Shown here piece after piece: positions 19,153 through 48,867 of a DNA stretch of 64,000 nt. How positions within the stretch are numbered: the stretch's first letter is position 1; the number at the start of each line of letters is the position of its first letter. Source of the DNA: an uncultured Gammaproteobacteria bacterium (GTDB lineage: Bacteria; Pseudomonadota; Gammaproteobacteria; UBA9214). Below the pieces are notes generated by a model. That model searched no databases. It had not been told where the DNA came from and worked only from the letters and a program-made list of their open reading frames with translations. Where the stretch lies: NCBI GenBank assembly GCA_963748215.1, contig CAVVHS010000005.1:32001-96000 (forward strand). The letters are read 5' to 3'. Both the position numbers and the translations under genes were made by a program.

Positions 19153-19398
19153 TTACTGGGCCTGCTGTACCTTCAGCAAATGCGCCACACGATCGGATAT
19201 CACGGCACCCTGGCTTGCCCAGTGATCCGCACGTTCGGTATCGATGCGCAAACGCACCTCGCCGCCGGTTGCCACCGGGTTGAAAAATCCGATTCGCTCG
19301 ATATAGCGTCCGTCCCGGCGATTACGGCTATCCGTCACCACGATGTGGTAGAACGGACGCTTCTTGGCGCCGCCACGTGACATTCTGATTGTCACCAT
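19153..19398 (-). CDS. rpsP: 30S ribosomal protein S16
   Basis: [41 protein letters not shown]. Confidence 0.98.
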
Positions 19399-19470
19399 AA
19401 AACCTGTCCTCTGCCTGAAAATCCGCCCATGCACCCGCACCTGAAAAATGCGGCTGCTGAAAGCCGGGCA

Positions 19471-19498
19471 ATTCTACGCGAATTCCGGGAAATGTGAA
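19471..19498 (-). promoter_or_regulatory. Probable sigma70 promoter of rpsP operon
   Basis: Minus strand TTCACA...TAGAAT followed by GC-rich discriminator. Confidence 0.5.
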
Positions 19499-19812
19499 GG
19501 GTTGCAGGCAATTAACCCGTGACGGTTGCACGTCACCCGGGATCGATCTTCGTCACGTGACACGCCATGTCGGGACACGCTGCCATCGGCTGGACGATCG
19601 TCCAGGTTGTCGAGATTGGTTACAGTCACTTCACGACGCCATCCCCTGCGGCGCGCAGCCGATTAGTTATTGTTTTCTCGATATTTCTCCCGCGACAGCG
19701 GCACGCGCCAAGGCGGCCGGTCTGTCGGCATTTCTTACGCAGTCGCGCCGGCGCCGGCGCCGCAATTCGGGGCAGCCATCTAACCCATTCTGCTAAATAG
19801 GGTTTTCAAGGC

Positions 19813-19828
19813 TGGCACGGCATTTGCT
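19813..19828 (+). promoter_or_regulatory. sigma54 (-24/-12) promoter
   Basis: TGGCACGGCATTTGCT fits TGGCACG-N4-TTGCW with exact GG-N10-GC spacing; predicted +1 near 19839. Confidence 0.8.
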
Positions 19829-19838
19829 TATTTACCAA

Positions 19839-20023
19839 GGCGAGCAAAGAAGAAAAGAACAAGGGGGGGAGGTAGTTCCAACGACACAAGAACAGGAGCT
19901 CTCTGCACAACAATTACAAGAACCGGCTTGCGCAGTGGTATCTGTACCAGCAGTACAAGAACAACAAATTCGATACCCTTATCGCGCAATGTTTGACGGT
20001 GGCCCAGGCCACCGTATTATTTT
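19839..20023 (+). ncRNA. Candidate CrcZ-like Hfq-sequestering sRNA
   Basis: Between the sigma54 promoter and a terminator; A-rich AAGAAGAA/AAGAACAA/ACAACAA/AAGAACAACAA tracts; no ATG-initiated ORF. Confidence 0.6.
19996..20023 (+). terminator. Rho-independent terminator of candidate sRNA
   Basis: acggtggc-ccag-gccaccgt hairpin followed by attatttt. Confidence 0.6.
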
Positions 20024-20165
20024 GTGCGCCTTCCAGTCTAGCTAGCCCGCATTTCTCACCGGGCGGCGGTTATCCGACTCAAATGAACTGAACTATGAAA
20101 TTAATACTCATTCGGCAATAAACAATGTGTCATTGGCCGCTGCCTATCCCGGTGAGACATGCGGG

Positions 20166-21518
20166 CTAGAACGGCAGGCCCATCGGCCCCTTGCCTTTCA
20201 TGCCGCGCAGCATCTTGCCCATCCCGCCTTTCGACATCTTCTTCATCATTTTCTGCATCTGCAGGTGCTGTTTCAGCAGGCGGTTCACGTCCTGCACCTG
20301 GGTGCCGGAACCCGCCGCGATGCGACGCCGGCGCGAGCCGTTGATTACACCCGGGAAGCTGCGCTCGTGCGCTGTCATGGAATTGATGATCGCCTTCATG
20401 CGATGGACCTGTCCGTCATCGGCCATGGCGTTTTTCGGCAACTGGCCCATCCCGGGCAGCTTGTCCATCAGGCCGGCGAGCCCGCCCATGTTCAGCATCT
20501 GGTCGAGCTGGTCGCGGAAATCGTTCAGATCGAAACCCTTGCCCTTGCTGATCTTCTTCGCCAGCTTGGCGACGGCCTCCTTGTCGACCTTCTGCTCGGC
20601 CTCCTCGACCAGGCTCAGCACGTCGCCCATGCCGAGAATGCGCGAGGCCACGCGGTCGGGATAGAACGGCTCCAGCGCCGCCGTTTTCTCGCCCACGCCG
20701 ATGAACTTGATCGGCTTGCCGGTGACCGAGCGAATCGACAGCGCGGCACCGCCACGGGCGTCGCCATCGGTCTTGGTGAGCACCACGCCGGTCAGCGGCA
20801 GGACCTCGTTGAAGGTGCGCGCGGTATTGGCGGCGTCCTGGCCGGTCATGCTGTCGACCACGAACAGTGTCTCCACCGGGTCGATCGCCGCGTGCACGCG
20901 GCGGATCTCTTCCATCATCTCGTCATCGATGTGCAGGCGGCCGGCGGTGTCGACGATCACCACGTCGATGTGCTGCTTGCGCGCATGCGCGACCGCATCG
21001 CGGGCGATGGTGACCGGGTCCTGGTCGGCACGACTCGGGAAGAACACCGCGCCCACCTCGTTCGCCAGCGTCTGCAGCTGGTCGATGGCCGCGGGCCGGT
21101 AGATATCGCAACTGGCCAGCAGTACCGTCTTCTTCTCGCGTGCCATCAGCCTGCGCGCCAGCTTGGCGCTGCTGGTGGTCTTGCCGGAACCCTGCAGGCC
21201 GGCCATCAGGATCACCGCGGGCGGCTGCACGTTCAGATGCAGCGCGTCGTTGGCATCGCCCATCACGTGCACCAGCTCGTCGCTGACCACCTTGACGAGG
21301 GTCTGGCCCGGGGTCAGGCTCTTGAGCACATCCTGGCCAAGGGCGCGCTCGCGCACCCGGTCGATGAACTCTTTCACCACCGGCAGGGCGACATCCGCTT
21401 CCAGCAGCGCCATGCGCACGTCGCGCAGCGCGTCCCGGATATTGTCCTCGCTCAGGCGCCCCTGCCCGCGCAGGTTGCGGATCGTTTTGGAGAGGCGTTC
21501 GGATAGATTGTCAAACAT
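20166..21518 (-). CDS. ffh: Signal recognition particle protein
   Basis: GLQGSGKTT, DTAGR, TKTDGDARGG, Met-rich M domain. Confidence 0.98.
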   Translation of the reverse strand: MFDNLSERLSKTIRNLRGQGRLSEDNIRDALRDVRMALLEADVALPVVKEFIDRVRERALGQDVLKSLTPGQTLVKVVSDELVHVMGDANDALHLNVQPPAVILMAGLQGSGKTTSSAKLARRLMAREKKTVLLASCDIYRPAAIDQLQTLANEVGAVFFPSRADQDPVTIARDAVAHARKQHIDVVIVDTAGRLHIDDEMMEEIRRVHAAIDPVETLFVVDSMTGQDAANTARTFNEVLPLTGVVLTKTDGDARGGAALSIRSVTGKPIKFIGVGEKTAALEPFYPDRVASRILGMGDVLSLVEEAEQKVDKEAVAKLAKKISKGKGFDLNDFRDQLDQMLNMGGLAGLMDKLPGMGQLPKNAMADDGQVHRMKAIINSMTAHERSFPGVINGSRRRRIAAGSGTQVQDVNRLLKQHLQMQKMMKKMSKGGMGKMLRGMKGKGPMGLPF

Positions 21519-48612: not shown

Positions 48613-48867
48613 CTAGGCATTGCCCGGATCGGGCGCGCCCTGTTCGTCGTTGCCGGGAATGCGCACATTGCGCGCCGGTACCACGGTTGAAATAGCGTGC
48701 TTGTAAACCATCTGGCTGACGGCGTTCTTGAGGAGCACGACAAACTGGTCGAATGATTCAATCTGGCCTTGCAGCTTGATGCCGTTTACCAGGTAGATGG
48801 ATACCGGGACTCGCTCTTTGCGCAGTGCATTCAGAAATGGATCCTGCAAAGATTGTCCTCTATTCAT
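48613..48867 (-). CDS. hfq: RNA chaperone Hfq
   Basis: [28 protein letters not shown]...[10 protein letters not shown]. Confidence 0.98.

Follow-up and report, generated by a model that had tools for sequence, protein, structure and literature searches.

A conserved sigma-54-type small RNA gene beside ffh in uncultured Gammaproteobacteria and its possible action on Hfq

The intergenic region between ffh and rpsP in an uncultured gammaproteobacterium of the UBA9214 lineage carries an RNA gene that is real, conserved, non-coding, and absent both from Rfam and from the literature that was searched. The gene was examined within a stretch of 64,000 nucleotides (nt) from this organism (assembly GCA_963748215.1, contig CAVVHS010000005.1, positions 32,001 to 96,000), which is hereafter called the window and whose first letter is position 1. 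It has a sigma-54 promoter preceded by two presumed enhancer boxes, and it would yield a small RNA (sRNA) of about 185 nt that folds into two helices and ends in an intrinsic terminator. Judged by its sequence features, the RNA is best read as a putative Hfq binder, because three or four tracts of A-R-N triplets (adenine, purine, any nucleotide) lie in its loops and linkers, because it ends in a U-tail, and because composition rather than sequence has been kept in these tracts. We assign a probability of roughly 0.45 to the more specific proposal that it is a decoy for the distal face of Hfq, working in the manner of CrcZ, operating without Crc or CbrAB, and co-regulated with matrix proteins.

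A conserved non-coding RNA gene in the rpsP-ffh gap

The neighbours of the RNA gene (ffh, rpsP, rimM, trmD and rplS) are all read from the minus strand, and the gap between ffh and rpsP measures 767 bp, close to the approximately 770 bp given in the initial annotation of this DNA, which had proposed an unannotated CrcZ-like Hfq sponge at this site. On the plus strand, the gap holds a unit composed of a sigma-54 promoter, then approximately 185 nt of A-rich sequence, then a hairpin with a T-run (Table 1). The elements named by that annotation were recovered: the promoter is a perfect consensus match, the four A-rich tracts lie where they had been placed, and the hairpin and T-run were found by a terminator scan. 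The G+C content of the genome, supposed to be 65%, was measured as 60.5%. The strict promoter pattern TGGCACG-N4-TTGCW occurs 6 times in the 3.52-Mb genome compared with 2 times for the reversed control, and rpoN is present in the genome.

No ATG-initiated open reading frame (ORF) lies inside the unit, as had also been stated. All ORFs in the RNA region have TTG starts, and the long one, which comprises 73 amino acids (aa) and spans the RNA, begins within the promoter. There is no conserved ORF among 48 homologues; their longest frames vary in where they lie, in start codon and in length. A coding function for the region was therefore rejected.

Table 1. Coordinates of the RNA gene, its control elements and other features of the window
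Feature	Position	Strand	Details
Distal enhancer box TGTCGAGATTGGTTACA	19608-19624	+	24.1 bits with the box matrix
Proximal enhancer box TGTCGGCATTTCTTACG	19723-19739	+	Ends 74 nt before the -24 element; 24.6 bits, the genome's best match to the matrix
Sigma-54 promoter TGGCACGGCATTTGCT	19813-19828	+	-24 TGGCAC / -12 TTGC; perfect TGGCACG-N4-TTGCW
Non-coding RNA, ~185 nt	19839-20023	+	Start inferred from promoter geometry, not mapped; R1 score 181.7 bits, E 1.7e-42
Helix P1	19842-19901	+	GAGC 19842-19845 with GCUC 19898-19901; consensus fold
Segment enclosed by P1		+	A-tract 1 (19846-19862), G-box GGGGGGGAGG (19863-19872), A-tract 2 (~19886-19894); consensus fold
Unpaired linker	19902-19927	+	(CA)UUGCACA block and A-tract 3 (~19907-19923); alignments
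Helix P2	19928-19990	+	UUGCGC..GGUAU with AUACC..GCGCAA; A-tract 4 (~19955-19968) in the apical loop
Intrinsic terminator	19996-20023	+	ACGGUGGCC-CAGG-CCACCGU and U-run (DNA: ACGGTGGCC-CAGG-CCACCGT); hairpin 19996-20015; terminator scan
Hairpin element, ~130 nt	20041-20169		22-nt terminal inverted repeats
rpsP promoter, sigma-70-like	19471-19498	-	TTCACA-16-TAGAAT
rpsP	ends 19398	-	
ffh	20166..21518	-	
hfq	48613..48867	-	

Homologues were collected within the genus by BLASTN, and eight were aligned to derive a consensus fold and, from this, a covariance model (R1). The model matches 34 of the 37 genomes of the genus and 49 of the 54 genomes of the order, which consists of one family with six genera, and the RNA is almost always present in a single copy. 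A diverged fiftieth copy that is missed by R1 was found by promoter pattern in the sixth genus (G064), where it likewise lies next to ffh, behind the same promoter and boxes. The four genomes of the order that lack the RNA are 64-91% complete. No R1 match was obtained in any of 150 other gammaproteobacterial families sampled. When one genome from each of 185,579 species was scanned for the pattern of the 3' domain, 52 stretches were returned, of which 9 are chance terminators and 43 were confirmed by R1, the latter all from uncultured metagenome-assembled genomes of this clade. One match labelled Woeseia was rejected, since it is just a terminator following a coding gene.

The RNA gene points away from rpsP and toward the converging ffh gene (rpsP <- RNA -> <- ffh) at 46 of 48 loci, and the remaining two are cut by contig ends. 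Its promoter is conserved as TGGYAY-N5-TTGC at 48 of 49 homologous loci, with the last having a 4-nt spacer. Conservation in relatives was the point on which the proposal had been staked beforehand, and the alignment reveals that promoter, A-rich tracts and terminator are all conserved. A cmscan of positions 19300-20250 against Rfam on both strands (E<=10) gave only two chance matches to unrelated families and none to the CrcZ family, which we take to be RF01675, and the whole window yielded only one tRNA at gathering scores. A literature search for a sigma-54 small RNA in the ffh-rpsP intergenic region returned nothing relevant.

Two other features flank the RNA gene. Between its terminator and the ffh stop codon sits a hairpin element bounded by terminal inverted repeats (TAGCCCGCATTTCTCACCGGG). 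Its centre is AT-rich, and its right arm overlaps that stop codon. The element is not present at this spot in relatives, and it resembles a miniature inverted-repeat transposable element because complete or partial copies with 82-100% identity number in the dozens and occur on all contigs of the genome. On the other side, the sigma-70-like promoter of rpsP lies within a block that is kept in relatives (GAAAGCCGGGCAATTCTACGCGAATTCCGGGAAATGTGAAG).

Fold and A-R-N tracts of the RNA

The consensus fold comprises two helices followed by the terminator stem. In P1, three of the four pairs have changes on both sides, and 96% of alignment cells are paired. The lower stem of P2 is nearly invariant, whereas seven of the eight pairs of its upper stem change on both sides. 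The sequence of the terminator stem is almost invariant over the six genera, with two pairs changing on both sides. In the complete alignment of 49 sequences, 13 of 27 pairs have changes on both sides, pairing extends to 90.6% of cells, and none of 500 shuffles reaches the observed score, a test that favours the structure because the alignment was fitted to the model. Sliding the 3' partners lowers pairing to 29-49%. No consensus emerged for an extra helix within the P1 loop when this domain was examined with MAFFT and alifold.

The four unpaired segments between the helices contain 45-55% A. At least two of these segments carry (ARN)>=3 in 42 of the 48 distinct RNAs, the linker does so in 34, and the P2 loop carries (ARN)>=4 in 22. 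Across the 48 RNAs, AANAANAA occurs 146 times and (ARN)4 occurs 115 times, compared with 26.1 +/- 5.6 and 21.8 +/- 5.6 in dinucleotide shuffles, respectively. This excess of about five-fold is descriptive, and is neither a probability nor an independent test because the homologues are kin. Column identity in the unpaired segments is 0.60-0.74, compared with 0.90-1.0 in the lower stem of P2 and in the terminator. Because identity in the tracts is low while the A-R-N pattern is kept, the alignment suggests that these segments may be under selection for composition and periodicity, and not for a sequence that pairs.

Two sequence blocks are nonetheless conserved outside of the stems. One is a G-box resembling a Shine-Dalgarno (SD) sequence (GGGGGAGG) in the P1 loop, and the other is CAUUGCACA, which follows P1. 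The latter varies in the nearest relatives of the window genome, in which it appears as CUCUGCACA, AAUAACAUA or CACUGCUAA.

Enhancer boxes, PEP-CTERM genes and candidate activators

Upstream of the promoter stand two copies of a conserved 17-nt box, TGTCG-N7-TTACA, located approximately 110 and 225 nt before the inferred RNA start. The distal copy, in the form TGTCGrnATTnrTTACA, is visible at all 46 loci with enough upstream sequence. A regular expression recovers the proximal copy 90-96 nt upstream of TGG at 44 of these 46 loci, and the other two have a CGTCG variant at the aligned position. The RNA locus is the only place in this genome where a strict box stands ahead of a strict sigma-54 promoter. 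The two boxes are presumed to be real enhancers of the RNA gene and are predicted sites for an enhancer-binding protein. The initial annotation had instead pointed to palindromes near 19519 and 19552 as possible enhancer sites. These palindromes exist, but they are absent from all seven relatives compared, including the closest, and the enhancer role is not upheld.

The same box type recurs before genes for matrix proteins. The next-best matches of the sRNA-box matrix in the genome (22.0 and 21.6 bits) stand in tandem upstream of a sigma-54 promoter (TGGCACGCAATCTGCA), and the VPVPAA-CTERM gene behind them encodes a product that ends in ...VPVPAAVWLFGSGLLGLVGVARRKKAA, a PEP-CTERM-type sorting tail. 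The signal-peptide start of this gene (MKKLLIATAVG..., G000:C8:436446-437070) is not in frame with the remainder of the ORF, which reflects either a frameshift or an assembly error. Three matches to the box regular expression fall no more than 8 kb from prsT-xrtA-prsR-prsK, and two of these precede a sigma-54 promoter and a gene with a canonical VPEP tail; prsK, prsR, prsT and xrtA all score above their NCBIfam cut-offs. The loci of this genome at which box and promoter precede PEP-CTERM genes are on C8 and C4, and further boxes with sigma-54-like promoters occur at C6:740-765 kb. At two of the C6 sites (G000:C6:740118-740800 and C6:755270-755860), box and sigma-54 promoter are followed by leaders that resemble each other (..GGGGATTAnCATG) and by small ORFs of approximately 76-100 aa that contain Cys; neither ORF has an evident PEP-CTERM tail.

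Across the order, the pattern of a box, 70-100 nt and a promoter was matched in 50 of 54 genomes, whereas the reversed control gave a total of two matches. We examined 18 of the approximately 25 matches outside of the sRNA locus; matches of intragenic appearance were omitted. One of the 18 proved to be the diverged sRNA. Among the other 17, a PEP-CTERM-tailed ORF lies downstream in eight and several more precede genes for signal-peptide proteins, whereas the whole genome has only about 24 PEP-CTERM-tailed ORFs.

These findings recall a module described by Haft et al. (2006, PMC1569441), which in the accessible text of that paper precedes proteobacterial PEP-CTERM genes and consists of a 17-nt motif that ends in TTTACA and is repeated in some cases, then 32-92 nt of spacer, then a -24/-12 element, with PrsR as the predicted binder. 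A PEP-CTERM gene of Aquincola depends on RpoN, according to the available part of PMC9850573. The box of the RNA gene comes close to that description, being 17 nt long, ending with TTACA, being repeated, and standing 74 nt upstream of a -24/-12 element. Moreover, the same type of box stands before PEP-CTERM genes, both here and in relatives, and prsK, prsR, prsT and xrtA are present in this genome. Unlike the published module, the product here is an RNA rather than a PEP-CTERM protein, and the box ends in (A/G/C)TTAC(A/G), including GTTACA and CTTACG, rather than TTTACA, a comparison made with the text description of the motif. In addition, some genomes without PrsK and PrsR retain both the RNA and the boxes. 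With this RNA, the sigma-54 module known from PEP-CTERM matrix genes appears to gain its first member that does not encode a protein. The RNA would be induced together with the matrix or floc programme, given that the same combination of box and promoter precedes PEP-CTERM genes. A literature search returned no paper linking PrsR or PrsK with a small RNA, Hfq or floc.

The genome encodes 11 sigma-54 activators, and none of their genes resides on the contig of the window. PrsR fits the box. A GlrR-like protein has orthologues in 36 of 54 genomes, and the orthologue profiles of PrsR and the GlrR-like protein are both patchy. Reciprocal-best orthologues of PilR, a PAS-domain activator and a FleQ-type protein are present in all five well-assembled genomes tested. 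The PilR gene adjoins that of PilS, and the spacer between PilR and pilin genes has GTGTCAC-type repeats rather than the box. The FleQ-type protein (FleQ domain, 60 bits) is encoded beside a FleN-like ATPase and a protoglobin-GGDEF-EAL protein (G000:C6:669418-674746), in a cluster that lies away from the flagellar cluster on C9. Its homologues, which are 50-69% identical, occur in 60 of the 150 other families (one of the 60 being G092). The consensus proposed for Pseudomonas FleQ in the accessible part of PMC6120874 (GTCaNTAAAtTGAC) bears only a loose resemblance to the box.

The FleQ-type gene is retained in four relatives that yielded no FlhA (G024, G050, G051 and G062) and in G008, whose FlhA is fragmented; 19 of the 54 genomes have FlhA. 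In the well-assembled relatives G008, G018 and G019, flhA is split or has internal stops. This pattern suggests that flagella are being lost within the genus. We regard PrsR and the FleQ-type protein as equally tentative candidates, each possible and each well short of an even chance, and another of the activators as a somewhat likelier one, itself below even odds.

Proposed action on Hfq and alternative explanations

The hfq gene, as had been noted, resides in the same window (Table 1). The encoded protein carries the distal-face motif SIYLVNGIK with Y25, as well as K56. Y25 serves the binding of A-rich RNA and K56 that of U-rich RNA, and six A-rich stretches that occupy the distal face of Hfq let CrcZ out-compete mRNAs, as described in the accessible sections of PMC5501646. 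If the RNA acts as a decoy, an enhancer-binding protein would activate sigma-54 RNA polymerase at its promoter from the two boxes, in concert with the matrix or floc programme. The RNA, standing alone, would fold into its two helices and terminator and display three or four single-stranded A-R-N tracts and a U-tail. On Hfq hexamers, the tracts would then occupy the distal face and the U-tail the proximal face. Induced RNA would thereby compete for Hfq with the A-rich ribosome-binding regions of mRNAs, such that Hfq-dependent repression would be relieved.

The resemblance to CrcZ, as far as the latter is covered by the source text, extends to a non-coding RNA gene with sigma-54 promoter, enhancer boxes and terminator, to several unpaired A-rich stretches (AANAANAA or A-R-N), and to the presence of hfq. 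Unlike CrcZ, the RNA is only about 185 nt long, has three or four tracts rather than six stretches, and shows no match in sequence or structure. Its locus is also different, because it resides between rpsP and ffh with no adjacent cbrB, as the initial annotation had remarked, and outside of the Pseudomonadaceae. The boxes TGTCG-N7-TTACA are not the TGTTAC/GTAACA subsites given for CbrB in the accessible text of PMC6296734, which calls the CbrAB system exclusive to Pseudomonadaceae.

A search of the genome for crc and cbrAB recovered no Crc and no CbrA-type transporter-kinase, the sole SSF-domain protein being a transporter of approximately 520-600 aa with no kinase fusion. The Xth paralogue nearest to Crc scores 279 bits to 4jg3 compared with 335 bits to the active Neisseria apurinic/apyrimidinic endonuclease. 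It retains catalytic E, D-N, D and D-H, whereas Crc has D, S-Y and Q-H, and because every catalytic residue that Crc lost is kept, this protein was rejected as a Crc partner. Membership in the CrcZ family was likewise rejected for want of an Rfam match, CbrB subsites, a CbrA-type kinase and Crc. What survives of the original proposal is an unannotated, sigma-54-type, terminator-bounded, non-coding RNA with A-R-N tracts, whereas kinship with CrcZ by sequence or structure and a Crc partner do not. The RNA is one that resembles a known kind in its predicted mode of action, with a new fold, locus and regulatory input.

Several points weigh against a role as a co-regulated Hfq decoy. Transcription of the RNA is itself a prediction, and the argument for Hfq binding draws on motif statistics whose underlying sequences are related and not independent. 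A-R-N tracts and a U-tail also define class II base-pairing sRNAs, the conserved G-box (GGGGGAGG) and CAUUGCACA blocks could be pairing seeds, and three or four tracts are fewer than the six of CrcZ. The regulon link uses a box pattern derived from the sRNA itself. PrsR scores above its cut-off in just 40 of 54 genomes, and PrsR and PrsK are missing from the well-assembled genomes G024, G050 and G019 and fragmented or decayed in G062, although RNA and boxes are intact in each of these four. Finally, the flagellar cluster of this genome has approximately nine sigma-54-like promoters and no box, and therefore does not help the case for the FleQ-type candidate.

Class II Hfq-dependent sRNAs such as ChiX and MgrR carry one or more A-R-N motifs and an intrinsic terminator with a U-tail. 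The RNA might belong with them, using its tracts and U-tail as an anchor on Hfq while a conserved block, either the GGGGGAGG G-box or the unpaired CAUUGCACA, pairs with mRNAs such as those of the matrix programme. The terminator and A-R-N tracts fit this possibility too, and no other sequences outside of the stems are as well conserved over the six genera as the G-box and the GCUCAUUGCACA block. However, the CAUUGCACA block varies in the closest relatives and is, like the G-box, only a candidate seed, and four separate tracts, rather than the one of ChiX and MgrR, exceed the needs of an anchor. We therefore hold base pairing to be a possible but rather doubtful explanation. Considerably less probable is a role in cis, whereby sigma-54 transcription directed against ffh read-through and away from rpsP would modulate ffh or rpsP-rimM-trmD-rplS by transcriptional interference or antisense pairing. 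Such a role would suit the position between rpsP and ffh that is fixed at 46 of 48 loci, the terminator a few tens of nucleotides from the ffh stop codon in relatives, and the fact that the terminator hairpin, when read from the minus strand, has no T-run after it. The covarying helices, invariant terminator and A-R-N periodicity point instead to a function of the RNA product itself, and rpsP has its own conserved promoter.

A third alternative, which we disfavour as very improbable, is an RNA like GlmY or GlmZ that is controlled by a GlrK/QseG-like/GlrR-like system and acts through RapZ and the glmS mRNA. The RNA is indeed reminiscent of these enterobacterial RNAs in its size (approximately 185-200 nt), its sigma-54 promoter and its upstream activator sites at approximately -100 to -240. 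The genome also contains rapZ and an operon (G000:C8:480965-484411) that encodes a HAMP histidine kinase, a 180-aa protein without a family match, and the GlrR-like regulator (628 bits, below the cut-off of 763), a layout like that of glrK-qseG-glrR. In its left half (TGTC), the box agrees with the GlrR consensus TGTCN10GACA as it appears in the accessible text of PMC3045617, but it is one nucleotide shorter and its right half is different. Neither GlmY nor GlmZ gave an Rfam match at E<=10, and the GlrR-like protein has, as noted, a limited distribution. Moreover, the glmU-glmS spacer is only about 10-25 nt in most of 24 leaders (this genome and 23 relatives), so that there is no glmS leader to remodel. 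The SD of the glmS leader in this genome (GGGGAAGGTAGGG) does resemble the G-box of the RNA, yet GlmZ-like action on glmS was rejected because most relatives have almost no spacer. Least probable of all is titration of CsrA/RsmA by GGA motifs. The genome has csrA and the G-box contains GGA, but each RNA carries only one or two GGA motifs, whereas CsrB- or RsmZ-type RNAs carry many.

A broader scheme, which we consider speculative and unlikely as a whole, would place the RNA within a sigma-54 'matrix switch' as its best-conserved output. In such a switch, one activator would turn on exosortase-sorted matrix proteins and, via the RNA, free Hfq-repressed mRNAs. The activator may be a FleQ-type sensor of cyclic di-GMP that was kept after the loss of flagella, and the RNA may belong to a set of sigma-54 A-rich Hfq decoys that arose several times independently in Gammaproteobacteria of marine sediments.

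For annotators, covariance model R1 provides a new RNA family of about 50 members. To our knowledge, Hfq titration by a dedicated RNA has been documented only for the CrcZ-type RNAs of Pseudomonadaceae. If the decoy reading is true, this structurally unrelated RNA of the same design would show that Hfq titration has arisen repeatedly and can respond to another signal. If the matrix switch exists, it would couple a sessile lifestyle decision to global post-transcriptional control, and, with recurrent decoys, control of Hfq by RNAs that sponge up the protein would be a common device rather than a speciality of Pseudomonas.

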